Source: a virus
Taxonomy: Duplodnaviria; Caudoviricetes
Direction: 5' to 3' (one strand)
DNA length: 64,000 nt
Virus record (IMG/VR): IMGVR_UViG_2914436621_000001
Span: 53,490 to 117,489 of that record
A program made the translations under genes and the position numbers. Below, piece by piece: positions 2,885-59,242 of this stretch; position 1 is the stretch's first letter, and each line of letters starts with the position of its first letter. Below the pieces are notes generated by a model that saw only the letters and a program-made list of their open reading frames with translations, searched no databases and was not told where the DNA came from.

Positions 2885-3222
2885 CCAAACCCAACATCGG
2901 AGAATTAAATCAACGGCTAGCCCTGCTGGAAGCTCAACAAGAATGGATCACTGCCATTCTTCAGGCGTATGGCATACAGGGAGTATGGCTCTCACCAGGT
3001 AAGGCAGCCAGCATCCTCGGAGTCACCCGCGATCGCATCATGGGCGAGATCCGCCGCGCCGAGCGGTTGAGAGCCGTCCGCAAAAGAGGGGATTGTCTAT
3101 ATGATGTCCATTACCGTGACGATCGAGATCCAGAAGAAGGCGTGGAGCCTGTCTGGAAAGCAAACATCATCGAATTTCGCAAACTCCTGGCAATCCCACC
3201 CGATGAACGAAAACTGCCCTAA
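2881..3222 (+). CDS. Putative excisionase / recombination directionality factor (HTH)
   Basis: WLSPGKAASILGVTRDRI HTH motif; convergent with and overlapping the integrase end. Confidence 0.6.
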   Translation: MTKPNIGELNQRLALLEAQQEWITAILQAYGIQGVWLSPGKAASILGVTRDRIMGEIRRAERLRAVRKRGDCLYDVHYRDDRDPEEGVEPVWKANIIEFRKLLAIPPDERKLP

Positions 3223-4313
3223 GAACGCCGCCTCATTACCTCCTGATACACCTTCAGATAGGGTTGTTCTCCCCACCACGCCCGATATTTAGTCAGATGA
3301 GTGTCAAGGCTGTGCCCCATTGACTTAGCGAGAAAGTCTGGCGGGAAACCAAACTCAAACCCGCGCCGAGCATAACAATGGCGCAAATCATAGGGAGTGA
3401 ATCCAACCTCAAGTTGGCGAAATCTTTGAGAAAGAGACATCCCTAATTGATTGTTATTTCGCCCCTCGATCTTTATGGATGGAATCTGATAATTTTGAAC
3501 ATCAAATTCCCAAAAGTCGGCGGGAATTGGGAAGGCGGTATGTTGTCCAGTTTTGGTTTCTTCTGGAACTTCCAACACCGCTGGCTCCTGGCCTAGTCGG
3601 TCGGTATGCACCACAAACGCTTCATGAGGGCGCAAACCATAAACGCACAAAGCATCGTAAAGCCACACCCAGCCGTAAGATTGAAATTTTTTTCTAGCCG
3701 CAGCGATGAGGCGATCGCTAGGCAGATCTCGTGGATTAACCGATCTAGACGCAGAATATCCCTTACCCATCTCCTTCAGGTCATCCGCCCCTACCAGCTC
3801 AGCAAACTCTGCCAGCAGTCGAAACGCCATTGCATATCCCTGCCTGCTTCGAGTTCCTGGATCGCTGCGCTCCAAAATAATTCGCTTCAACAGCTCCAGG
3901 CTCAACGGCTCATCTAGCGGTAGGTGACGAAACTTCAGTTCATAATCCTTGTGCCACGAATTGAGCGTGGAAGGAGTTTGTTTGGTATTGTTCCAATGAT
4001 GATCTGTAAACTTCTCAACCCACTCCCCTACTGTCTCGGAGGGTTTTTGCTTGCCCTTGAGATAGGGCGTCCAGTCAAATTTCTCCTTAATTAGTTGACT
4101 TTCCATCTCCTGAGCAATGGCGAACGCCATCCGCAACCCAGCAAACGTAGCTGGCTTACCCGCACTAATCTCGTAAGATTTAGCATGACTACCGTCCCCT
4201 GGCTTTGGCGGAAATGTGCCACGAATCGATAGCCGTTTACCTCTAATGCGAATGCTGACCAACGACAAGAGTTGGTTGGTTTCGGCCAGACGCTCATCAA
4301 ATCCAGTTCCCAT
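3219..4313 (-). CDS. int: Tyrosine integrase
   Basis: Catalytic motifs YGLRPHE, KTG, YDLRHCYA, MGHS...Y; adjacent to tRNA-derived att core. Confidence 0.93.
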   Translation of the reverse strand: MGTGFDERLAETNQLLSLVSIRIRGKRLSIRGTFPPKPGDGSHAKSYEISAGKPATFAGLRMAFAIAQEMESQLIKEKFDWTPYLKGKQKPSETVGEWVEKFTDHHWNNTKQTPSTLNSWHKDYELKFRHLPLDEPLSLELLKRIILERSDPGTRSRQGYAMAFRLLAEFAELVGADDLKEMGKGYSASRSVNPRDLPSDRLIAAARKKFQSYGWVWLYDALCVYGLRPHEAFVVHTDRLGQEPAVLEVPEETKTGQHTAFPIPADFWEFDVQNYQIPSIKIEGRNNNQLGMSLSQRFRQLEVGFTPYDLRHCYARRGFEFGFPPDFLAKSMGHSLDTHLTKYRAWWGEQPYLKVYQEVMRRRS

Positions 4314-4550
4314 TTGCCCAAAATTTGCCCAAAAAATAACCTCAGACAGACCTAGTTTTTGATTAAAAACCTATTCTGTCTGAGGCAAGCTTAAGGCTAA
4401 AACCTAGAAACGGAGAGGGAGGGATTCGAACCCTCGGATACCCCTAAAGGCATCAACAGATTAGCAATCTACTCAACAATTCTTCTAAGGCTTGATGCAG
4501 AAGCCTTGTGAAAATTGCCAAAAAACAAATTCCCCCATTTCTCCCCCAAA
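4312..4550. promoter_or_regulatory. attP region with putative integrase arm-type repeats
   Basis: Tandem ATTTGCCCAAA x2 at about 4312-4333 and related ATTGCCAAAA / TCCCCCA(AA) motifs at about 4514-4550 flanking the tRNA core. Confidence 0.55.
4411..4470 (-). other. attP core: 3' half of tRNA-Ser(GCT) (anticodon arm, long variable arm, T arm, acceptor 3' strand)
   Basis: Minus strand reads AGATTGCTAATCTGTTGATGCCTTTAGGGGTATCCGAGGGTTCGAATCCCTCCCTCTCCG; the 5' half (acceptor 5' strand, D arm) is absent. Confidence 0.88.
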
Positions 4551-4650
4551 TAGGGTGTTTTAAGCCCTTCACATCTGTCGCTATTCGGGGGTGTGGGGCG
4601 CTAGTCGAGCTAATTGAGCGGATCGCTCCGCCGCTCTAGGCCGGGTAAGC

Positions 4651-21137: not shown

Positions 21138-21680
21138 TTATTGGCTAGAATTTCGGCGATCGCGCTGCATTCGTCGATCGCCCGCTGTTCGATAGCCTTT
21201 TGGTCTAGGGACTGTGTACTGCCGGATCGCAGCGCGATCGCCACTCGCCAGGCGGCTAACAATTTCGGCGTATTCCCGTTGGGTAGTTCCCCTGGGAACT
21301 CGCACTAACTTTCGAGGATTTGCCGTTTCGAATATTTGTTTGTTGATGGCGGCAATCTTCGCCTCCGTCCGTCCAACCCGTCTTGGATTCAGCGATTGCT
21401 CCAGGCTTTCACGAAACAGTTGGCGTTGCCTCTCTCGGCTTTGCCTGGTTGAGCCAAGCGTTGATTCGATGACATTTTTGGCGTTTTGGCGATCGATCGC
21501 CTTTGTTGCCTGCGCCCCCAATCCCTGCAACTCGTCCATGCGAGACTGAAGTTGCCCCAGCAGACGCTTACGTTCTCGAACCGTGAACGGGACGATGTTG
21601 TTATCCCCGGTCAGGCGCTCAACGGTTTTCCCGGTGGGTTTGAATTTGCCGCCCTTCCAGCTCCCTCCTTTTGATGCCAT
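21138..21680 (-). CDS. Basic protein with N-terminal MASKGGSWKGGKF tag (tagged protein 4)
   Basis: Arg-rich 180 aa ORF between neck genes and sheath; shares N-terminal peptide with three other ORFs. Confidence 0.8.
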   Translation of the reverse strand: MASKGGSWKGGKFKPTGKTVERLTGDNNIVPFTVRERKRLLGQLQSRMDELQGLGAQATKAIDRQNAKNVIESTLGSTRQSRERQRQLFRESLEQSLNPRRVGRTEAKIAAINKQIFETANPRKLVRVPRGTTQREYAEIVSRLASGDRAAIRQYTVPRPKGYRTAGDRRMQRDRRNSSQ

Positions 21681-26119: not shown

Positions 26120-26836
26120 ATGCAATCCACCATCGCTTCATTTCAAATCACCGCTCAGTCTGCCTGGTCAACGCTACTCATCTGCGATCGCCAAGCCCGC
26201 AAAGATGCAGCTAAGGTTGGCCGCTTCACCCGCTCAACCTACCGCATTTTGAAAAGCCCAAGCGCTATCAAAACCTACCGCTGCATTGGGTTAGCGCTTC
26301 AAATCGCTGGACTGACGGCGATCGCTCTTGGCTCGTCTATCCGTGAAGCTGTCCGGGTCTTCCGGCAATGGGCTGATGCCTACGTTGAATCGTGCCTGGA
26401 GCAGCCTGCGATCGAGGTAGTAGAGCCTCAACAGGTAAGCGAACCCCATGAGCGTTGCGAGTTCGTAATGCTGCTGAACGGGTACACCATTGCGGCTTCG
26501 CCCGAAAGAGCGGCGCAAGTTAGAGCAGAGCAGAACGCCTTGGCTCAAGCCATGATGGGCCGTGGGTTTACCGTCTCTGATCCCTGGAGTCTTCCCCTAG
26601 AACAGGCTGTGATCGAAGAGGCGATCGTTCAGCCTCAACCCTCTCCTCAACCCTCTCCTCAACCCTCTCCTCAACCCTCTCCTCAACCCTCTCCTCAACC
26701 TCTGTTGCTCTTGCCAGCCGCAGCGGAACTCGTTCAACCCAAGAGCAAGCGCAGCAGATCCCGCAAAGCGGAGGCGGCTCCAGCTCAACCCAAGGGCAAG
26801 CGCGGCAGACCTCGTAAGGCTGAGGTGGTAGCGTAG
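26120..26836 (+). CDS. Moron protein with hydrophobic segment, PQPS repeats and C-terminal AT-hook-like KRGRPRK
   Basis: GGAG RBS upstream; stop abuts the portal stop. Confidence 0.7.
   Translation: MQSTIASFQITAQSAWSTLLICDRQARKDAAKVGRFTRSTYRILKSPSAIKTYRCIGLALQIAGLTAIALGSSIREAVRVFRQWADAYVESCLEQPAIEVVEPQQVSEPHERCEFVMLLNGYTIAASPERAAQVRAEQNALAQAMMGRGFTVSDPWSLPLEQAVIEEAIVQPQPSPQPSPQPSPQPSPQPSPQPLLLLPAAAELVQPKSKRSRSRKAEAAPAQPKGKRGRPRKAEVVA
26633..26700 (+). repeat. 12-bp tandem repeat (CCTCAACCCTCT) x5 plus partial
   Basis: Direct reading; encodes PQPS repeats. Confidence 0.95.
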
Positions 26837-32395: not shown

Positions 32396-32986
32396 TTATC
32401 GATTGATAGCACGTTCGCGATCGCGCTGTCGTCGAAGCTGCCGATAATTTCCTTCAGCAACCTGCCCGGCAGGGGTGTTTGTTTCATATTGCCTCAACGT
32501 TGCATTGTCGGGCGTTAGCTTGCCGTTGCGGACGATCGCGTACTGGGTACCTCCTGCCCGCCCTGCAACAGGTCGAGAAAAGCCAGCAGACTCATAAGCC
32601 ACGGCACGGGTTGCACCTCGACTGTCTCCAATGACGGCATTGCATTCATATTTAAATCCATCAGGGCGAGTGGAGGCATCGTGAGTTATGATTCGACGGA
32701 TTTTGAGAGCGGCTAAATCCGCCTCTCGTCCCTTTAACGCTCCGGCAGTCGAACTGCCATTGACGCTAAATGAAACCGAATGTGAATCTGGATCGAAGAA
32801 GTCAGGCAAGATGTTTAAGCTAACTTTGTTGTCGCCAGACTTAAACTCATAGGTTTGAAAGCCACCTATTTTTTCGGCAGTTACCCCATCTGGTAATTTG
32901 GGCTGGCGACCGCCCTTAACCTCGCTAGAACTTTTGACGGCAAGCGCAAACTTCCCGCTTTTCCAAGAGCCGCCTTTGCTTGCCAT
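32396..32986 (-). CDS. MASKGGSWKSGKF-tagged protein 3 (possible GNAT-like fold)
   Basis: Shared N-terminal tag; R...YESAGF resembles the GNAT C-terminal motif (weak). Confidence 0.8.
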   Translation of the reverse strand: MASKGGSWKSGKFALAVKSSSEVKGGRQPKLPDGVTAEKIGGFQTYEFKSGDNKVSLNILPDFFDPDSHSVSFSVNGSSTAGALKGREADLAALKIRRIITHDASTRPDGFKYECNAVIGDSRGATRAVAYESAGFSRPVAGRAGGTQYAIVRNGKLTPDNATLRQYETNTPAGQVAEGNYRQLRRQRDRERAINR

Positions 32987-32995
32987 CAGATTTGC

Positions 32996-33649
32996 CTAAA
33001 TTTCCATTAATTGAACAATGGTCGATCGCCCCTCAGTTCTCTTCCCGGTCACCGTAAACCGAGACCCTGGAGGATAAAGGACTTCTCGCTCCCCTCTGTA
33101 GGAGCTAAGACGGCTGAGGTCTCTAGCATTCTTGCCAGTTGCATTGATCTCAAACTGCAAGTTACCCGATCGCCGCCGATCAGCCCTGGCAGATGTGCTC
33201 ATGAATCCCTTGTCGGTGTAGGTTTCGCCAACCCTAATCGACGAAATCACACTTTGAGAAACCCCTATCCCTCGATAAACAGTTCCTGTATGAGGTGGCA
33301 GCTTTTGTAAAGCCGATGCAGCAAAACGACCATCTAGCTCAAAGTTGCGACGGGCGCGATCGCTGAGATAGCTCAAGTCGCCCCCTCTAAGCAGAGTGTT
33401 GATGTTGCTGTAGCCATAGGTCGTGTAGTAGCGGAGGGCGGCGTACTCTTCCAGGTTGAGGTTGCCTAAATCCTTCGATCGCCCCTCTCTCATGTACCGC
33501 TTCAGCATCCTCTCCCTGGCACCGCCTCCCTCCATGCTCTTGAGATAGGTTTGGCGTAATTCCTCGGTGGAAGCAGTCTGGGTGGGGGCAGCTTGCATTT
33601 TCACGGGAGCAAACGTCCCGCTTTTCCAACTGCCGCCTTTGCTTGCCAT
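32996..33649 (-). CDS. MASKGGSWKSGTF-tagged ADP-ribosyltransferase (VIP2/C3-like, R-STS-ExE)
   Basis: YT..GYSNINTLLR, VYRG, FMSTS, EREVL catalytic motifs. Confidence 0.92.
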   Translation of the reverse strand: MASKGGSWKSGTFAPVKMQAAPTQTASTEELRQTYLKSMEGGGARERMLKRYMREGRSKDLGNLNLEEYAALRYYTTYGYSNINTLLRGGDLSYLSDRARRNFELDGRFAASALQKLPPHTGTVYRGIGVSQSVISSIRVGETYTDKGFMSTSARADRRRSGNLQFEINATGKNARDLSRLSSYRGEREVLYPPGSRFTVTGKRTEGRSTIVQLMEI

Positions 33650-34916: not shown

Positions 34917-35516
34917 TTAGCCCTGTTCCGCTGCCCGACGAGCAGCTTTGGCAGCTCTGCGTTCAGCTTCCTGTCGCTGCTGCAAGGCATCGTTTCTTTG
35001 CCGTGCATCTCGCTCCATCCTTGTGAAGGATGGGTTCCTGCCCGATCGCCCAACCAGTTCAGATCGGAACGTCTGAACAACTCTTTCGTTGTTTCTTTCA
35101 GCGGTAGACATTCGGTTGTACAGGGATTCTGCGATCGCCTGCGCCCCAGCGCTGACACGAACCCCCAAACCCGCATCTGAGGAGGCGATCGCCTGAATAC
35201 TTTGATTACTGATGACTGCGATGACGACATCCGCCTTGCCTTCAGCAGACAGTCGGTCAAAAGTGTCTGGATTTTTTAGATATTGCAATCCTTGCTCCAG
35301 TCGAGTGGTTGGGCCGCCCAATTCCTGCACTTCTCCCGATCGCTGATCGAATGGAGTGCTTTGTAGCGCCTTCACCTCTGCAATAGTCTGCTCAGCAAAT
35401 GAGGAAACTTGGCTGTCAGTTGGAGGGCGATCGCCATTTAAGGCTTCAGCCCCACCACTTTTTGAGGTGGCCGCAGCAAATTTCCCGCTCTTCCAAGAGC
35501 CGCCCTTACTCGCCAT
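34917..35516 (-). CDS. MASKGGSWKSGKF-tagged protein 1
   Basis: Shared N-terminal tag; start overlaps ParB-like gene end; Arg-rich C-terminus. Confidence 0.8.
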   Translation of the reverse strand: MASKGGSWKSGKFAAATSKSGGAEALNGDRPPTDSQVSSFAEQTIAEVKALQSTPFDQRSGEVQELGGPTTRLEQGLQYLKNPDTFDRLSAEGKADVVIAVISNQSIQAIASSDAGLGVRVSAGAQAIAESLYNRMSTAERNNERVVQTFRSELVGRSGRNPSFTRMERDARQRNDALQQRQEAERRAAKAARRAAEQG

Positions 35517-36234: not shown

Positions 36235-37206
36235 TCAAACATCCATCAGATCTGCTAGCATCTCCGTCACCTTGCCCTGGGCATTGACGCGATTGTCGTC
36301 GTAACGCATGAGAACCTCAGGCTTGCGGTGACGGCTCAGCTTCATGGTTTCCCGAATATTGCCATTGCTGGCATCCAACGCCGCCGTAATCCCGCTGTGG
36401 CGGCAGCGGTGGGGTGAGAACCGCTTTTTGATACCCGCCTTCTCTGCCAACTGAAACCGAACTAAGTGATAGAGTCCGTCTCCAGTCAAGCGTTGACCAA
36501 AGTGGGCGCGATCGACTGCAATAAATAGCGGTGACTTGGGCGCGCGATCGCCCCTTGCTTCCAGCCACACCTGGAGGGCTTCAACTGCGGCACTGCTCAG
36601 GCTAACCGATTCTTTCTGGGTGCCCCTCCCCTTCCCCAGGATGGCTAGAGTTTTGGCTTCAGGATTAAAGTCTGCAACGTTGGCAGAACAAATCTCATTA
36701 CGCCGCAGCACATTATCCCAGAGCAGCCGTAGGAGGGCGTAGTCACGCTTACCCTTAAGCGTTGAGCGATCGACGACTTGAAACAGCAGCTTGAATTCCT
36801 CTGGAGTAATGCCCGTGGTATCCCGATAGGTCTCGGTTTTCTCCAGTTCAATTTCTTCTAAGCTCCAAACACATTTGCCTACTTTCTGTGCAAAGGCAAC
36901 GAGTGACTTAATTGCAGACAGCCGTACATTGACGGTGGATTCGCTCAGCTCTCGTTTAATCAGTTGAGCTTTATAGTGCAACACCAGTTTGATGGCAGTG
37001 GCACGCTCCAACTGAAGGAAATGCGCGACAAGTGCCGGGTCAGGCTCTTTGCCACTGATGACTTCAAAGAAATCCTTTAATCCCCTGGCATAAGTGCGAC
37101 GGGTGCTCTCGCTCCGCTTGTCTGCCAGTAATTCTTGGATGAGATCTCGCTCCTCTACCAAATCGAGAAAGAAGGGAGACGAGGAAGAAGGGGCGATCGC
37201 ACTCAT
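36235..37206 (-). CDS. Second tyrosine recombinase (XerC/D-like resolvase)
   Basis: SAM-like N domain (STRRTYARGL, STVNVRLSAIKS), RDYALL..LRRNE, GKG, SPHRCRHS, RH...Y. Confidence 0.92.
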   Translation of the reverse strand: MSAIAPSSSSPFFLDLVEERDLIQELLADKRSESTRRTYARGLKDFFEVISGKEPDPALVAHFLQLERATAIKLVLHYKAQLIKRELSESTVNVRLSAIKSLVAFAQKVGKCVWSLEEIELEKTETYRDTTGITPEEFKLLFQVVDRSTLKGKRDYALLRLLWDNVLRRNEICSANVADFNPEAKTLAILGKGRGTQKESVSLSSAAVEALQVWLEARGDRAPKSPLFIAVDRAHFGQRLTGDGLYHLVRFQLAEKAGIKKRFSPHRCRHSGITAALDASNGNIRETMKLSRHRKPEVLMRYDDNRVNAQGKVTEMLADLMDV

Positions 37207-49250: not shown

Positions 49251-49483
49251 GAACGCGGCGTTTGGCGATCGAATTGTGCATGGATGATGCTGCCACCCAT
49301 CTAAGCTGAACATGTCGCAGTGCTGATTACGTTGTTAGAAAATCGGCTCTAGCCCTTATTGATGCTTCTCTTCATCAGTTGGAACAACGCGGAGACGCAT
49401 GTTGACCTACAGGTTAACCCGTGGGACATAATTACTGTATGACAGCTTGCCAGCTTTACAGCAGTAACGGAGGAGCGATCGCT

Positions 49484-50032
49484 ATGGCGCTGATTGCTGC
49501 AAAATGGACAGTTAAAGACTATCACCGCATGATTGCTGCTGGTATCTTGGAAGGTCGCCAGGTCGAGCTGCTGAATGGGGAAATTATTGAAATGCCGCCA
49601 GAGGGACCACCTCATGCTTATTTCAGCGATGAAACTGCCGACTACCTAGAGCGACTACTAGGCGATCGGGCAAAGGTGCGTGAAGGGAAGCCAATCACCC
49701 TGCCTAACGACTCAGAGCCAGAGCCAGACATTTCTATCGTTCAGCCGTTAGGAGAGGTGTATGCAGAGCGTCATCCCCATGCGGAGGATGTGTTCTGGTT
49801 GATTGAATTTTCAAACACCAGCTTGACTAAGGATCTAGAAGATAAAACCAAGATTTACGCTAGTGCCCAAATTCAAGAATATTGGGTTGCTGATCTGCGA
49901 AACAAACAACTGATTGTCTTTCGATCGCCTGCAAATGGGGATTACACATCAGAGAACACGCTAACCCAAGGTGATGTTGCTCCGTTAGCATTCCCTGATG
50001 CTTTTATTTCAGTTAGGCGGCTGGTGGGGTAG
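49484..50032 (+). CDS. Uma2 (DUF820) family endonuclease-fold protein
   Basis: WTVKDYHRMIAAGIL, VELLNGEIIEM, SEPEPDI, K.KIYASAQIQEYWVADL. Confidence 0.92.
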   Translation: MALIAAKWTVKDYHRMIAAGILEGRQVELLNGEIIEMPPEGPPHAYFSDETADYLERLLGDRAKVREGKPITLPNDSEPEPDISIVQPLGEVYAERHPHAEDVFWLIEFSNTSLTKDLEDKTKIYASAQIQEYWVADLRNKQLIVFRSPANGDYTSENTLTQGDVAPLAFPDAFISVRRLVG

Positions 50033-51416: not shown

Positions 51417-51715
51417 CTTTCTTCCACTGATTTGTTTCTTGGGGATGCGTGGTTCTAGGCCTACATACCAAGCTCCAAATTGGAGGGGGCATCTTTTCCT
51501 GCCAACTGTCTCTAAATTTTTGCTCTACATAGCAAGAAGTCAAACAGCACCAAAAAATACGTCAAAAAAGCAATACAGAGTTTTTGACTGCCCTAACTAT
51601 CCCGTAAAACTTTCATGTGGGATAGCGCTATGCAATTGCCACTGCGTTATCTTTTGTACACAGGCAAGAATTTGCTTGTGTGCAGAATCTAGCAAAAACA
51701 CTAGCAGTGGTGGTT

Positions 51716-52045
51716 ATGGCAATTCTAACTAAAGGCATCAAGCTATCGCAGCTTGCAGCAACTTCACCAGAACAAAAGGCATCTGAGATAGACAGCTTAA
51801 TCAATGCAGCCCTAAACCCAGACAAACAACATCTCGAGCAACAGTGTAATGAAGTGGATGCTCGGATTAAAGAGTTTGAGTGTCGCTACGAAATGTCGTC
51901 CGATGCAATGAAACAGCAACTTTCTCAAGGGTTGATTAAGGAAACAGCTGAAATTTGTTCCTGGTTGTTGCTTTTGAAAGTGAAAAACAACCTTAAGATG
52001 CGACCTGATGAGACACCAACCCAATCGCTTTCAAAATTACTTTAA
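51716..52045 (+). CDS. Putative antitoxin (TumA-like)
   Basis: RIKEFECRYEMSS...EICSW pattern; overlaps downstream toxin-like gene. Confidence 0.55.
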   Translation: MAILTKGIKLSQLAATSPEQKASEIDSLINAALNPDKQHLEQQCNEVDARIKEFECRYEMSSDAMKQQLSQGLIKETAEICSWLLLLKVKNNLKMRPDETPTQSLSKLL

Positions 52046-52517
52046 GACCCACGAGACGGTTCTTGAGCAGTTCAAGTCCCGGCGATTTGTTGGTAACGAC
52101 ACCCTGGAATTTCGACCCTCTAATTGCTGTTTCTTGCTTGATGGAGAAATAGGTTGCTTAGGGGGTCTTGTTATAAGAGTAGAGAAGTTGATACGAATTG
52201 TTAGCCAAGATCCTCAGGAGCCTTTAGTACAAACTGAATGGTATGCCTATAATGCTTCACTTCGCAACAATCACAATATCTTTAGATATGACAACCAGGA
52301 TGAAGACTTTAACTTTCGTCTTGGACATGCTGATCCGCACCACAAGCATACTTTCGATTGGTGTACGGGAAATGAATTATCTGAAAGTCCACTGTGGGTA
52401 GGGGCTGAGAAATGGCCCACTTTAGGTGATGTGTTACACGAATTAGAAGATTGGTATTGGAAACACAAAGAACTTCTGTCCAATCCTGAAGACTACCCTG
52501 AGCTGGACCTTCGATAA
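52008..52517 (+). CDS. Putative toxin (DUF6516/TumE-like)
   Basis: YAYN...FRYDN...PHHKH motifs. Confidence 0.6.
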   Translation: MRHQPNRFQNYFKTHETVLEQFKSRRFVGNDTLEFRPSNCCFLLDGEIGCLGGLVIRVEKLIRIVSQDPQEPLVQTEWYAYNASLRNNHNIFRYDNQDEDFNFRLGHADPHHKHTFDWCTGNELSESPLWVGAEKWPTLGDVLHELEDWYWKHKELLSNPEDYPELDLR

Positions 52518-52743: not shown

Positions 52744-53298
52744 CTAGAACGCCTCCCCTGTTGCCGCCTCTACATTGGCGATCGCCCGTCGAGCAACCAT
52801 CTTCCAGTTCGTCTGGTCATCGTAGGGTGCTTTCACCGGATTGCCCATCGCATACATCCGGCAGAACAGAACTGATTCGTCAGTGCCAGGTTGTGGGGAC
52901 AAGGTGATGGGTTGCTGGAGCTGCTGTGGTTCCAAGGCGGCAACCGCCGATAAGAGGCCTTTGCTGAAATGCGAGTCATAGCCAGACTCCACACAGTAGG
53001 GGCGATCGCCCTTTAAATAAGCCTGGAGTTTGACCACCGGCTTACCGCGTCGATCCACCGTCTCAAAGCGTAACTCTTGCAGGTATCCCGTCAAAGCTGT
53101 GGCAGTGACAGGAACAACTTCGCCATTATGAACGATGTACCACAAGCAGTTGTTCGATCGGTTTGCATAAATCCGCATGAGTGCAGGCGCTTCAGTCAGT
53201 CCTAACTGCGGCTGTTTGAGGTGGTTAACGATTGCGCTCAGCAATTCAGTTTGTCGAGTTAGAGCAGCAATTATTTGAGCAGTATCTGAGATGGTCAT
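52744..53298 (-). CDS. Hypothetical protein of leftward early operon
   Basis: 184 aa beta-rich ORF. Confidence 0.65.
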   Translation of the reverse strand: MTISDTAQIIAALTRQTELLSAIVNHLKQPQLGLTEAPALMRIYANRSNNCLWYIVHNGEVVPVTATALTGYLQELRFETVDRRGKPVVKLQAYLKGDRPYCVESGYDSHFSKGLLSAVAALEPQQLQQPITLSPQPGTDESVLFCRMYAMGNPVKAPYDDQTNWKMVARRAIANVEAATGEAF

Positions 53299-53556
53299 AA
53301 GGTTTCCCCTAGAACGGAATGTCGGAGACGCGGCTCCAATCTGGATGGAGTGCAAACGTTAGCGCGGCTGTGAGCGTAGGAAATAGGGTGTAGGGTTGAA
53401 GCGGCTCAATTTCTGGATGTGGATCGGTGTAGATGCAGAGATTCCAACCGCCATCAACCTCAAAGATTGAGAATAGCAAGAACTTTACCTGAAACGGAGA
53501 CGGAAGAGTGGTGGAGCGATCGCCCTTTTGCTGGTGACAAGAGGGCGATCGCGTTA

Positions 53557-53856
53557 TCAGCAATATTTGGCTTCGTATTCGTTCTGAACGTTCATAATTG
53601 CCGTCCATTCTTGACGGGCTTGCAATTCTTCAAGAGAGCACTGAGACTCAAATTTTTCCCATGCACACCAAGCAACAAGCCTATCCAATTTGCTAATTCG
53701 CTGTTCAGCGGCTTCTATCTCTTGCTCCGATGCACCAACCTTGTGATGCAGGTGATTGAGGTCTTCTAGGGTTGAAGCGTCGCGCACCATCTGCTTGATT
53801 TCTTCTAACTCTTGTTGCATTGTTTCAAATTCAACAGCAATCTCACAGCTAATCAT
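53557..53856 (-). CDS. Coiled-coil hypothetical protein
   Basis: ORF in leftward operon. Confidence 0.55.
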   Translation of the reverse strand: MISCEIAVEFETMQQELEEIKQMVRDASTLEDLNHLHHKVGASEQEIEAAEQRISKLDRLVAWCAWEKFESQCSLEELQARQEWTAIMNVQNEYEAKYC

Positions 53857-53920: not shown

Positions 53921-54232
53921 TTACCGAGTGCCAGATCCTTGGCTGCGTTCCGGTCCATCTTCGACAGGTGGAACGTATGGTTCTGAAGCAGCGAAGGTTA
54001 CTTCAACCACTTCCCAGTCGCGATCGTCGTGAACACCACAACCCGGCCTGTTGTCGGTTGTTGTACATGAGTCAGGCTGGGGCTGGATGGGTTTTATTGC
54101 CTGCTGATCAAGATCTCGCCTACCACTACCGCGATGACTAGTCTCATCCTGTGTTTGAACCTGGGAATAAACGGGTACTGGAAGTGATGGGGGTGTTACC
54201 CCTAGAACGATCGAAGTTAATTCAACTAGCAT
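53921..54232 (-). CDS. PatS/PatX-like RGSGR-motif protein
   Basis: Hydrophobic N-terminus, Pro-rich linker, HRGSGRR at 54136-54116, C-terminal GSGTR. Confidence 0.6.
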   Translation of the reverse strand: MLVELTSIVLGVTPPSLPVPVYSQVQTQDETSHRGSGRRDLDQQAIKPIQPQPDSCTTTDNRPGCGVHDDRDWEVVEVTFAASEPYVPPVEDGPERSQGSGTR

Positions 54233-54334
54233 GAATGAAGTCCGTTAGGATAACCTGCCAGCTTTGCCGTGGAAAGTTGAGCTGGCAGGATGAACAATTG
54301 GGGCAGACTTCTGGAGAGGGGCTTTAGGGTAGGT

Positions 54335-54682
54335 TTAGGCGGCTGCAACAGCTTCGAGTTCTGCGATCGCTCGTCGTTCGTTGAGCTTCAGCACGCTGAA
54401 CTGATTGCGGAGCAGATCCAACTGGATCTGCTGTTCAGTGCGCTTGTCTTGTGCCGATTGAACCTCAAGCAGCAGGGCTTGGTAGTCTTCGACTGCCATC
54501 AGCTCAGCCTTTTTTGCTTTGCGTTGACCTTCGTTGGTCAAGGTTTTATCAAAGGCAACCGCGCCTTCAATCTCAGCATTAAACTGGCTTAGAGCATCTT
54601 GGAGCTTACGCAGATGCTGCTCCTGGGAAAGAAGCTGAAACTGGGTGCGGGCGATCGCTTCTGGGAAATCTGAAATTTGCAT
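54335..54682 (-). CDS. Coiled-coil hypothetical protein
   Basis: AFDKTLTNEGQRKAK helical ORF. Confidence 0.7.
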   Translation of the reverse strand: MQISDFPEAIARTQFQLLSQEQHLRKLQDALSQFNAEIEGAVAFDKTLTNEGQRKAKKAELMAVEDYQALLLEVQSAQDKRTEQQIQLDLLRNQFSVLKLNERRAIAELEAVAAA

Positions 54683-54750: not shown

Positions 54751-55083
54751 TCAGCTAGCAATGGGAACCAGATGGATTTTCAATCCCTGCCGCTTTAAGA
54801 GCCGGTCTTGATCTGCAAATATCTCTTTGGTCAAATCAAGCCCGATCGCCACGCTTTTGACCCGCTTGCAGCAGTCCTGAAACCGCGATTCTGCATCTTC
54901 AGCACCCTGGTCACGAGCAGCAAGCATCTCGTCGATCGCCTGTGATAGGAAGGCTAAGTCATCCAGCAGCAGCTCTTTCTGGAGTGCTGCGTCATCATCG
55001 TCGGGAGCGATCGCGGTGGCTTGAGCCTCAATGCAGGTGTCGAGTTCTTGTTGCGCGACGGTTCTAACGTTTAGAGCTACCAT
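54751..55083 (-). CDS. Hypothetical protein, first gene of leftward operon
   Basis: GGAGG RBS upstream on minus strand. Confidence 0.7.
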   Translation of the reverse strand: MVALNVRTVAQQELDTCIEAQATAIAPDDDDAALQKELLLDDLAFLSQAIDEMLAARDQGAEDAESRFQDCCKRVKSVAIGLDLTKEIFADQDRLLKRQGLKIHLVPIAS

Positions 55084-55226
55084 TAATTCAAATCCTCCGA
55101 GGTTTTCTTGGGGTTCTCAACTCTTCGTGTTGTCCAAGCATTTGAGTTGAGAGAGATTGCGAAAGGCGATTGCTGTCAGTTTCCGAGGCTGAAGGGGCGA
55201 TCGCCTTTCGATTAATCTAAATGTAC

Positions 55227-55292
55227 ACTAATAGTTTATAGTGTGTCAACTAATAGTTTACAGTGTGCTATATACTGTTAGCTAACGGTTTA
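55227..55292. promoter_or_regulatory. Operator repeats in divergent promoter
   Basis: ACTAATAGTTTAYAGTGTG at 55227 and 55249 (22-bp period), degenerate CTAACGGTTTA at about 55282. Confidence 0.7.
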
Positions 55293-55312: not shown

Positions 55313-55561
55313 GTGTTAGCCACTAAGATGCGAATACGGCAGATAAGGGAGATCGAGGTGGAGGGCTTGGGCGAGCGGATCAAGCAAGCTCGCTTAAATT
55401 GCAGCAAATCTCTTGAGGAAATCTGTGACGAGGTTGGGGTCTCCCGAACCTACTGGTACGACATTGAGAAGGAGACTTTGAAAGGGGCTTTATCAATTGA
55501 GAATTTAAGAAAAATTGAACAAGCTCTTGGGGTGACTCTGGGGGTGCAATTTAATGATTGA
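55313..55561 (+). CDS. XRE-family HTH regulator
   Basis: LGERIKQAR...SLEEICDEVGVSRTYWYDIE...LRKIEQALG. Confidence 0.9.
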   Translation: MLATKMRIRQIREIEVEGLGERIKQARLNCSKSLEEICDEVGVSRTYWYDIEKETLKGALSIENLRKIEQALGVTLGVQFND

Positions 55562-57130: not shown

Positions 57131-57907
57131 TTAAAGAGGTAGAGCGATTTGAGCTTCCTGAACAGGTTCTTTCTGAGATAACTGAACGGTTTTTGACCCT
57201 GCTGATGGAAAACCATCCCAAGTTCTACCATCCAAGGTTCGTCCATTTCGCTTCTTCTGAACGCCGCCCCATTGTTTGAAGAAGAAGGGAACATCCGCTG
57301 CTAGACACTGCTCACGTATTTCTCTTACCCAATCCGATTTCATTGGTCTTGCACCAATGCCGGATTCACCACCTACAATGACCCAATCGATTCCAGTTAA
57401 ATTAAGCTGTAACGGACCCAATAGTGGTTCGCAGGATAAGAATCGAATCTGAGCTGGAACCTGTCTTAGCAAATCAATTCGAGTTGTCCAAGCTTGCGAC
57501 TCAACGCTTACTCCTGCCCAAACATTGGAGGGTAATTTCCCAACTTGCTTCGCAATTTCTAGCATTCGTTCAGGCCGTTTTGTAAGTAACTGAAACTGAT
57601 GCCAGTGTGCCCTCTCCATGACCGAGATGACCTTGTGAATAAAGTCGTCTGGAACTTCTGGATGAAACAAGTCGCTCATTGAGTTTACAAAGATCAGGCG
57701 TGTTTTCTTCCAGGTTAATGGCAATTCCAATCGCTCATGCCAGATTCTAATGTCAAATCCCTGCTCGTATGGATGACCCTCTATTCCGCGCCATCGCTCA
57801 GCAAATCGCTTTGCATAGCAGTTCTTACACCCTGGACTAATTTCATCACATCCAGTTGTGGGATTCCAGGTAGATTCAGTCCACTCTATTGCTGAGTTCA
57901 TTGACAT
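57131..57907 (-). CDS. DUF5131 (phage Gp37/Gp68) family protein
   Basis: [63 protein letters not shown]. Confidence 0.93.
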
Positions 57908-57946
57908 AATATCTCTCCCAAATCCGGCTTCTGTTTTTAATTATTA

Positions 57947-59242
57947 TCACACGATTTTCACTTTGCTTTCTAGTGTTGGGAATCGTTTTTTACCTAAGGA
58001 TTCAGTTTGAATAATACCTTCAGTGAATAATTCAATCATTATGGTTCGATAATCGGATCGTTTCAGGTAACCCAGGTCATAGCCTTGACTACCTAAAGTA
58101 AGAATAAGGTCAGTAATCACATCATCCATCTTCTTCCATTGTTGATTTCTTTGCTTTAAAAGTTGAATGATTTTAGGTTTGATCTCACTCTTCCTTTGCT
58201 GAGTCTGTCGCTCCCATGCTTGCTGTAAAAAATTCCTATTCTTCTTACTCTTATCGACTTCGTAAAATAGAAGCTTATTTTCGTCTGCAAAGAAGTCGTT
58301 TAAGAACTCCCCGCAGGCTTTCCGCGGATGATTACTACCAACCACAATGCTATACATTGGACGCAAATCGGTGTACCGTTCTTTTATGTCAAAACTAGCA
58401 ACTCCATTAAACTGACCTTCATTAGCAATTCTTTGGGTAAAGTAATCAAGTGCCCAACGTTCAAATTGTTGCGGCTCATCTTTTAACTCCAGCCATTTTG
58501 GTTTCCAATCTTCATCAGAATTAGGCCCGAGCATCTTTGTTAAATTTTGCATATAAGTCCCAGCTATTTTTTTCATCCTTTCGTTGTCTGATTTTTGTGT
58601 CAAGTAACCTGCATGACGCGCAACAGAAGAGTTATGAAATAGCAAAAAAAGTTCTCCCTTAAATCTGCTAACATATCGACCAATCATGCCAATTTGTTCG
58701 AAGTTTATACCTTTGACTCCAAAAGAATCTAGGAAGAAGATTGTAGGGTACTCATTCAAATCTTCTATTATTTGAGGAAAAGTTTTATCAAACCGTTGTG
58801 GCTTGTAAATTTTGCACTCTACTCCATTTCCAATTCCTAAGCAATTTGCCTGAAGTTCCTTGTTTGTTTTCTTATGTGCTTCTGCAAAAAAACATCGTAG
58901 ATTAACTCGCTTTTCAGCCCGAAACACTTGGGCACATTTGAGGGCAATCAAAGGAGAACCGTCGGTATCTAGAAGATCAATGTTATATCGCTTCCAAAAA
59001 TTAGATTTTTCGACAAAGTCCTCAATGCCAAAACCATCATCGTACTTTCCCGCACCCGCAAATCCATCCACATAATTAATGTGTCTAGATTGAAAGGGTT
59101 TATCTCCACCCAAGTTGTAACAATGCGATTGAATATAACGCAGCATAATTCGGTGTTTTGCAGCAGACCAAGAACGCTTGCATGTGAAAAACTCTTGTGG
59201 TCCGTCAGAATTTTGGTTGAGCAGTGGAAGTTGATGGAACAT
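57947..59242 (-). CDS. tcmP: Three-Cys-motif partner protein (TcmP-like, SAM-binding fold)
   Basis: WSAAKH, YVDGFAGAG, DGSPLIAL, FFLDSFG motifs; adjacent to DUF5131. Confidence 0.85.
   Translation of the reverse strand: MFHQLPLLNQNSDGPQEFFTCKRSWSAAKHRIMLRYIQSHCYNLGGDKPFQSRHINYVDGFAGAGKYDDGFGIEDFVEKSNFWKRYNIDLLDTDGSPLIALKCAQVFRAEKRVNLRCFFAEAHKKTNKELQANCLGIGNGVECKIYKPQRFDKTFPQIIEDLNEYPTIFFLDSFGVKGINFEQIGMIGRYVSRFKGELFLLFHNSSVARHAGYLTQKSDNERMKKIAGTYMQNLTKMLGPNSDEDWKPKWLELKDEPQQFERWALDYFTQRIANEGQFNGVASFDIKERYTDLRPMYSIVVGSNHPRKACGEFLNDFFADENKLLFYEVDKSKKNRNFLQQAWERQTQQRKSEIKPKIIQLLKQRNQQWKKMDDVITDLILTLGSQGYDLGYLKRSDYRTIMIELFTEGIIQTESLGKKRFPTLESKVKIV

Follow-up and report, generated by a model that had tools for sequence, protein, structure and literature searches.

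The stretch of DNA analysed here, hereafter the window, comprises 64,000 nucleotides (positions 53,490 to 117,489 of IMG/VR record IMGVR_UViG_2914436621_000001) and lies on contig C148 of a 7.3-Mb cyanobacterial genome, to which we refer as the host genome. On its minus strand, at 53921..54232, it carries a small open reading frame (ORF) of 103 codons with an ATG start and the stop codon included in the coordinates. This frame, ORF103, appears to encode a mosaic of two host peptide modules. As judged by sequence comparison it is homologous to PatX (Asl2332 of Nostoc/Anabaena PCC 7120; family NF047413), a hetR-linked protein that is exported and gives rise to the peptide HRG(S/T)GR, an inhibitor of HetR, and it ends in the C-terminus of a second exported host protein. 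The most economical reading is that its product is a PatX mimic, because the motif, the preceding serine (position −1) and the following RDL (positions +1 to +3) are exactly as in the PatX of the host. As the tail is conserved equally strictly, a second host interaction would have been copied too. We put the probability that ORF103 encodes a mimic of host PatX, inhibiting HetR and carrying a second host peptide module on a mobile element, at roughly 0.45.

The earlier note on this DNA, made from the letters alone, had described a 103-residue ORF with HRGSGRR at 54136-54116 and GSGTR at the C-terminus. Both the listed ORF and its codons (CAT CGC GGT AGT GGT AGG CGA for HRGSGRR, minus strand) confirm this description. 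The protein (MLVELTSIVLGVTPPSLPVPVYSQVQTQDETSHRGSGRRDLDQQ...EPYVPPVEDGPERSQGSGTR) begins with MLVELTSIVLGVTPPSLPVPVY and ends with ...ERSQGSGTR. A longer N-terminus is impossible because a stop codon lies 4 in-frame codons upstream of the ATG (open frame of 107 amino acids, aa). The RGSGR pentapeptide by itself is weak evidence, as a count over all open frames of 30 aa or more in the six reading frames of the host genome (9,133,152 residues) gives 50 instances of RG[ST]GR, nearly always in frames of non-coding appearance. Other [H]RGSGR open frames of the genome (on C42, C114 and other contigs) were rejected as candidates because they looked non-coding by eye. Residues 6-45 of ORF103 (54098..54217, minus strand) are colinear with residues 46-85 of the 85-aa host PatX ORF, i.e. 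from its post-signal part to its C-terminus. This alignment to the hetR-linked PatX of the host is gapless, with 18 of 40 residues identical (BLASTP, E 4e-10). The core SHRGSGRRDL (aa 32-41; 54110..54139, minus strand), which contains the HetR-inhibitor motif HRGSGR (aa 33-38), is identical in both proteins; outside these ten residues, 8 of 30 positions agree. Compared with a profile of 22 hetR-linked PatX proteins, ORF103 reached a probability of 92.5% (hhalign, E 4.9e-7). When it was compared with 33 distinct PatX-like sequences, drawn from 55 loci, the host's own PatX came out nearest, with 37.7 bits versus at most 25.8 bits for all others. The extended motif [HY]RGSGRR[DE] recurs among hetR-linked PatX proteins of several lineages, and at 22 of 29 other hetR loci an RG[ST]GR ORF precedes hetR on the same strand.

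The second module is the tail PYVPPVEDGPERSQGSGTR (aa 85-103; 53924..53980, minus strand), which also forms the C-terminus of an exported protein of 98 aa encoded next to nadB on host contig C72 (L003:1501-1794, minus strand). All 19 residues agree, while 14 of the 19 codons differ, all of them at synonymous third positions. The C72 protein belongs to an unnamed family of 42-141 residues with variable middles, N-termini that mostly resemble signal peptides by eye, and an invariant C-terminus that reads Y.PP..G(G/A)P..[ST]QGSGTR in the alignments (further family loci L027-L045). When a profile of this tail was run across 301 genomes of the class, ORF103 was the top match (66.2 bits, E 2.4e-17). 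ORF103 carries the host-lineage variant VEDGPER, which none of the 19 other family members whose complete sequences were read possesses; a database relative, P0018, is one residue off. In a collection of 5.8 billion proteins the family has 103 members, 94 of which end in QGSGTR. They originate from Elainellaceae, Oculatellaceae, Leptolyngbya, Crinalium, Spirulina and similar sources, contain no Pfam domain, and every source name shown is 'hypothetical' or uncharacterised. The C-terminal GSGTR, listed in the earlier note, is not a second motif of the HetR type but the hallmark of this separate family, whose relationship to PatX was rejected because hhalign gave a probability of 2% and aligned only the first residues. 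A likeness of the family to a PatX cluster in a protein atlas (rank 3, score 0.79) was discarded as well, being under the atlas's own threshold.

Several observations suggest that ORF103 is a real gene under selection. Its codon usage scores best of the six frames, at a level that none of 3000 off-frame control segments attains. The two modules share this one open frame and are separated by about 45 codons without a stop. The core peptide is the same in ORF103 and in host PatX, yet 12 of its 30 nucleotides and 9 of its 10 codons differ. When the observed differences, 12 in the core and 14 in the tail, were placed at random, the peptide was kept in 0 of 200,000 trials for each segment. Since the peptides are identical while their silent sites are randomised, both modules have been held by purifying selection over this divergence. 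By the same comparison they are not a recent DNA copy of the host genes. The earlier note had allowed that the short motif might have arisen by chance. A gapless PatX alignment over 40 residues, an identical 10-mer, an identical tail of 19 residues and the outcome of the random trials speak against it.

The target of the proposed mimic is present in the host. Its hetR gene, whose presence the earlier note had left to be checked, is located on contig C91 (265.8 bits against a cut-off of 27; NF009718, 582 bits), with patX about 250 bp upstream encoding a protein with a signal-type N-terminus and the end ...NQYSHRGSGRRDLSQCA. Residue R223 of HetR is invariant in 24 aligned HetR sequences, the host's included. 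Relatives of the neighbouring genes and of the tail family bear the names Phormidesmis, Leptolyngbyales, Elainellaceae and Oculatellaceae, and genera under such names are described as filamentous and non-heterocystous. The host also possesses a nifH gene above the curated cut-off (468.6 versus 394.35 bits; L129, G000:C110:28097-28909, plus strand) and may be capable of nitrogen fixation, even though heterocysts are absent from its named relatives. According to the available part of PMC7476756, R223 is needed for PatS binding. HetR and PatX occur in nearly all filamentous cyanobacteria, and their role outside heterocyst formers is called a mystery in the accessible sections of PMC11298460. Excerpts of PMC12756182 state that RGSGR and HRGTGR peptides bind HetR and stop its DNA binding, that PatX must be exported, that the peptidase PatP acts outside the cytosol and cleaves on either side of the motif, and that filaments share a periplasm in which RGSGR peptides act between cells.

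Four [HY]RG[ST]GR motifs are found in one hetR-linked PatX precursor (L098:2756-3100, minus strand) and three RG[ST]GR motifs in another (L094:934-1245, plus strand). Unlinked paralogues exist too, as genome G010 encodes a 73-aa exported PatX-like protein with SYRGSGRR (L125:1465-1683, minus strand; G010:C231) that has no hetR within 1.5 kb, in addition to a hetR-linked copy.

How might ORF103 act? In the proposed mechanism, two modules would have been copied from the host lineage, namely mature PatX with the core SHRGSGRRDL and the invariant tail of the second exported protein. By a cytoplasmic route, the exposed HRGSGR of a disordered ORF103 protein would dock on the hood domain of HetR. By an export route, the weak N-terminal stretch would permit secretion, and the PatX-processing machinery of the host would excise the peptide. 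An RGSGR-type inhibitor under control of the element could then hold down HetR-dependent programmes in the filaments that carry it, and the tail might engage whatever reads the second host peptide. The cellular location of ORF103, its binding to HetR and its benefit to the element are steps that we infer. The protein is probably disordered, as its single-sequence AlphaFold2 model has no secondary structure (predicted local distance difference test, pLDDT, 59; predicted template modelling score, pTM, 0.14) and the Atlas model is poorer still (pLDDT 0.23), although single-sequence models are generally poor. It is acidic, with a net charge of −8. The middle linker (aa 46-84; 53981..54097, minus strand) contains two cysteines and has no significant relatives; an 11-residue stretch weakly resembles the start of mature host PatX (6 of 11 residues, E 0.017).

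Whether ORF103 is exported matters since PatX without a signal peptide is inactive in Nostoc. Its N-terminus (aa 1-22; 54167..54232, minus strand) consists of a short hydrophobic stretch (MLVELTSIVLGV) followed by the proline-rich TPPSLPVPVY. The hydrophobic run extends over 8-9 residues after E4, and no basic residue precedes it. Both parent families have clear signal peptides. The hydropathy maximum of ORF103 in a 15-residue window falls below those of all 20 tail-family and all 22 PatX proteins examined; in windows of 18-20 residues it is within the low range of both groups. Thus, the N-terminus looks like a weak or atypical signal peptide at best, and we estimate the chance of export at about one in three.

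A number of points weigh against a HetR-inhibiting PatX mimic. In Nostoc, PatX without its signal sequence failed to inhibit differentiation (PMC12756182, in the excerpts available), and ORF103 not only has a poor signal peptide but starts, in the alignment, with the post-signal part of PatX. Transcriptomes of the non-heterocystous Leptolyngbya BL0902 suggest that PatX is largely HetR-independent there (PMC11298460, accessible sections). The PatX-like nature claimed in the earlier note stands as homology to host PatX (E 4e-10; hhalign 92.5%) but not at the level of the curated model. NF047413 gives ORF103 15.3 bits, below the cut-off of 30, and matches the core alone (profile positions 53-68 of 69). 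That model is strict for the host clade, given that the host's own hetR-linked PatX, matched over its full length, scores only 23.5 bits against the same cut-off. Unlike in most PatX proteins, 65 residues follow the motif to the C-terminus, and the cysteine found near the PatX C-terminus in the host clade (..QCA) is replaced by Q. The codon usage of ORF103 lies at the 2.9th percentile of in-frame pieces from long host genes, its score being 0.069 as compared to 0.127-0.328 for neighbouring genes of the element. Much of the synonymous divergence may predate capture. That the gene is expressed, and that its modules stayed under selection after capture, we likewise infer. Finally, ORF103 is an orphan. 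The earlier note had proposed to align homologues around an HRGSGR core, and this came to nothing as there are no whole-ORF homologues among billions of proteins. A word-indexed search of the 5.8 billion proteins matched only ORF103 itself and the C72 protein of the host, and phmmer against 1.84 billion representatives returned ORF103 as its sole match. In phage records, tblastn found only five Mycobacterium phage matches, all with E of at least 6, and relatives in viral contigs were not found. Neither ORF103 nor host PatX matched any Pfam family, and the same holds for the C72 protein, for P0089 and for another PatX, though the copy used may omit a PatX model.

A bolder version of the PatX mimic takes the tail as a signal in its own right. 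ORF103 would then be a two-headed mimic of two host intercellular signals, the SQGSGTR tail acting as another morphogen-like signal linked with the HetR circuit, and the element would take over host development. This version draws on the distribution of the tail family, which is confined, with one weak exception, to genomes with hetR, and on P0089, a protein that fuses the tail with RGSGR. The tail profile finds the family in 47 of the 301 genomes; hetR was found in 160 of this set. It accompanies the tail in 46 of the 47, and a tail match occurs in only 1 of 141 hetR-negative genomes (G108, a weak match with E 1.4e-4), figures that describe a co-distribution rather than a test because kin genomes are not independent. 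P0089, a 62-aa exported protein and singleton of one assembly, has a signal peptide followed by RGSGRVEPP... and then ...GGPDRSQGSGTR, and represents an independent natural pairing of RGSGR and the SQGSGTR tail, which also speaks for the PatX mimic in general. With these data the two-signal version seems doubtful to us, if worth keeping in mind.

In 15 of 20 loci the tail-family gene is convergent to the same large gene, the L-aspartate oxidase gene nadB (NF005636, 776.5 bits, cut-off 723), and this position marks it as chromosomal and inherited vertically. Two genomes that belong to different families (G008:C64 and G196:C15) have the tail-family gene 14-16 kb from hetR on the same strand, a spacing that may reflect residual hetR linkage. 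The tail profile had no match in three Phormidesmis-type genomes. Therefore, a 101-aa signal-peptide protein ending in GTGGTGTR (4269-4571, plus strand) in a Phormidesmis metagenome-assembled genome (L025) is not a recognisable member of the family. It is encoded in a small-gene operon together with a 122-aa ORF containing ERGSGR (3293-3661, plus strand) and a second copy of p203, a gene that also belongs to the ORF103 operon described below.

Rather than inhibiting HetR, ORF103 could act as an antagonist or decoy that competes for a PatP-type peptidase, an exporter, an importer or an immunity factor, so that less active host signal would be produced and HetR would be de-repressed. The S and RDL flanks and the whole 19-residue tail are kept exactly, beyond the needs of a pentapeptide that binds HetR. 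PatP cuts before as well as after the motif (PMC12756182, excerpts), and both copied modules derive from exported precursors, as would suit a competitor for processing or transport. However, the same excerpts place PatP outside the cytosol while export of ORF103 is doubtful, the partner is hypothetical, and HRGSGR, which would be set free or exposed all the same in intact form, should inhibit HetR. We regard a decoy as improbable and return to the PatX mimic as the preferred reading.

ORF103 might have no function at all. Illegitimate recombination could have joined fragments of patX and of the nadB-adjacent gene into a mosaic that is open but unused. Such an origin would fit an orphan gene beside an orphan neighbour, the absence of a clear signal peptide when both parents have one and the atypical codon usage (2.9th percentile), and the synonymous divergence could have arisen in the donor lineage before capture. 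The modules are, however, intact to the residue and match the host variants while their DNA is no more alike than randomised third positions would allow, and no close donor is found among the 1.84 billion representatives. The segments also lie in a single frame with some 45 stop-free codons between them, the ATG is proper, the frame beats every off-frame control, and P0089 pairs the same motifs in a normal exported protein. A functionless mosaic is unlikely in our view.

ORF103 belongs to a minus-strand operon with the order p110, p115, ORF103, p99, p203. The first gene, p110 (54751..55083), forms with p115 a pair that has a paralogous counterpart at C148:38.5-39.5 kb. p115 (54335..54682), directly upstream of ORF103, encodes a coiled-coil protein of a mobile-element family that is present in 39 of 57 genomes of the host family or order, often in several copies. 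Downstream of ORF103 follow p99 (53557..53856), an orphan coiled-coil gene found among the 301 genomes only in the host, where it has no paralogue, and p203 (52744..53355; likely true start near 53298), with relatives of 62-64% identity in Phormidesmis and Leptolyngbyales records. A p203 homologue lies directly 3′ of a p115 homologue in 5 of 14 related loci, and none of these 14 p115 loci has an ORF with RGSGR or the tail. As p115 and p203 are adjacent elsewhere and p99 is unique to the host genome, ORF103 and p99 were apparently inserted together into a conserved pair. The loci of p203 relatives have no other gene in common with the window, and searches for synteny with the J-domain protein matched the J domain alone.

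A 10-bp hairpin (CCUGCCAGCU...AGCUGGCAGG; 54254..54289, minus strand) is located in the 102-nt spacer upstream of ORF103 with no T-run after it. Its predicted RNA fold has a free energy of −27.2 kcal/mol (z −2.39), and 5 of 200 shuffled sequences fold equally well. A promoter-like TTGACA-18-TACATT (55220..55249, minus strand; 10 of 12 matches) in the divergent spacer faces the p110-p115-ORF103 operon, in a region where the number of such sites (2 found, 2.8 expected) is not above chance. On the other side of this spacer, a divergent gene (55313..55561, plus strand) encodes an XRE/Cro-CI-type helix-turn-helix regulator (PF01381, E 3.6e-9) that matches transcriptional regulator and repressor families of PHROGs and shares 85% protein identity with an XRE regulator on a conjugative Calothrix plasmid. 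No DIF1 motif (TCCGGA) was found near ORF103, the four sites in the window being at 696, 20824, 37523 and 62210. The motif does not discriminate here because it is also missing from the patX-hetR locus of the host.

ORF103 is carried on what its gene neighbourhood marks as mobile DNA. The part of C148 from at least 33 kb to about 125 kb encodes integrases, structural proteins of a prophage, toxin-like products and a DUF3854 protein; only at about C148:125.8 kb does the core genome return, with lgt and phosphoglucomutase. The earlier note had assigned the ORF to the leftward early operon of a phage, a view that the neighbouring genes do not favour. Relatives of p115 are found on four cyanobacterial plasmid records and in none of 50,697 phage records, the XRE regulator resembles that of the Calothrix plasmid, and ORF103 lies outside the phage block. 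This block of structural and packaging genes, with myovirus-like terminase, portal, head, sheath, tape measure and fibre genes, occupies about 4.6-34 kb of the window. Integrases are encoded at 3219-4313 and 36235-37206, and ORF103 is 17 kb past the nearer one, the prophage itself being placed 22 kb away. Prophage origin nevertheless keeps some probability because phage-type families, phrog_9210 and DUF5131/phrog_2045, occur near ORF103. On balance, an integrated module resembling a plasmid or an integrative and conjugative element appears somewhat more likely, and the early region of the neighbouring prophage less likely. The borders of the element are not conspicuous. The window contains no convincing long direct repeats that could serve as att sites and no tRNA genes, and neither GC content nor the density of the HIP1 motif (GCGATCGC) marks a border, HIP1 density in the region being that of the rest of the contig.

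Such adaptation of the DNA to its host bears on another explanation, in which ORF103 is a PatX paralogue that serves the host from an old, immobile island as a differently regulated source of inhibitor. The HIP1 density of the region fits it, and PatX-like genes without hetR linkage do exist in the family, as the 73-aa SYRGSGRR protein of G010 illustrates. In contrast, members of the operon are multi-copy and plasmid-borne, its XRE switch is common to conjugative plasmids, and ORF103 was not found in 56 other genomes of the family. A host-serving paralogue is unlikely. It is highly improbable that ORF103 is an arbitrium-like signal of the element itself, released by lysis or export to time induction or transfer: filaments share a periplasm in which RGSGR peptides act between cells (PMC12756182, excerpts) and the gene adjoins an XRE switch of the lysis-lysogeny type, but no receptor gene is evident alongside, the peptides are the host's own and carry no element-specific information, and homologues are missing from phage and viral collections. 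A host PatX mimic on a mobile element remains the reading that we prefer.

Other features of the contig are recorded as observations. The second p110-p115 pair, 70 kb away on the same contig (L067:5006-6044, minus strand; G000:C148:38.5-39.5 kb), is followed by a gene for a DdrB-like single-strand-binding protein, with sigma factor, DUF3102 and DUF3854 genes nearby, which suggests two related mobile modules in tandem on C148. The interval from the prophage block to the ORF103 operon contains a TumE-type toxin-like gene with an overlapping small gene upstream (51680-52517, plus strand) and a Uma2-family nuclease gene (49421-50032, plus strand). At 57131-59242 (minus strand), a DUF5131 gene (phage Gp37/Gp68 family) is followed by a 431-aa gene without family match, and the pair looks like a two-gene module. 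Within the prophage region, four minus-strand genes open with an identical 41-nt sequence and hence a common N-terminus (21640-21680, 32946-32986, 33609-33649 and 35476-35516), one of them with a match of the ADP-ribosyltransferase or virion-protein type. Just downstream of the portal gene, at 26633-26700, a 12-nt unit (CCTCAACCCTCT) is repeated perfectly in tandem.

If ORF103 is a PatX mimic, it would give a first indication that the HetR/PatX signalling circuit is a target for the genetic parasites of multicellular bacteria. Among titles and abstract openings of the literature on RGSGR or PatX with phage, cyanophage or prophage, no RGSGR protein of a mobile element is mentioned; the PatX homologue lists of Xu et al. 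2025 might include unlinked or mobile copies. ORF103 would also provide a natural, possibly cytoplasmic, RGSGR-bearing protein that is testable against HetR, and the tail family would be a candidate new peptide signal in hetR-bearing cyanobacteria.

Set against known systems, ORF103 is a PatX derivative that lacks several defining features of PatX and ends in a C-terminus diagnostic of an undescribed family. Like PatX, it is small, has a low-complexity segment rich in proline, serine and threonine before the motif, contains the core [H]RGSGRR[D] and has hetR in its host. PatX is defined by RG(S/T)GR, usually after H or Y, in the definition of Elhai and Khudyakov (2018) quoted in PMC11298460 and PMC12756182, and the HRGSGR of ORF103 conforms to it. 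Unlike PatX, ORF103 is encoded on the mobile DNA of C148 and not upstream of hetR (C91), it has a weak signal peptide or none, the motif is followed by a 65-residue stretch ending in the tail of another family, and the late cysteine is missing. With the SQGSGTR-tail family it shares the end Y.PP..G(G/A)P..[ST]QGSGTR, but it lacks a signal peptide of the family type and a nadB neighbour, and outside the tail there is no relationship. HetN contains its motif, ERGSGR, within a larger protein, as does ORF103, which in contrast to HetN has no short-chain dehydrogenase domain (no Pfam match) and no predicted secondary structure. HetN is named as an RGSGR protein in the excerpts of PMC12756182, and ORF103 carries the RGSGR of both HetN and PatS of Anabaena PCC 7120. 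Unlike PatS, it is not a peptide of 13-17 residues, and its homology is to PatX, not to HetN or PatS. Phages and plasmids of other bacteria carry host signalling genes, such as those of agr-type and quorum-sensing systems. In ORF103 we see the same idea, an element that carries a component of a host signal, in another signal system and another host; no case with HetR or PatX came up among the papers searched.

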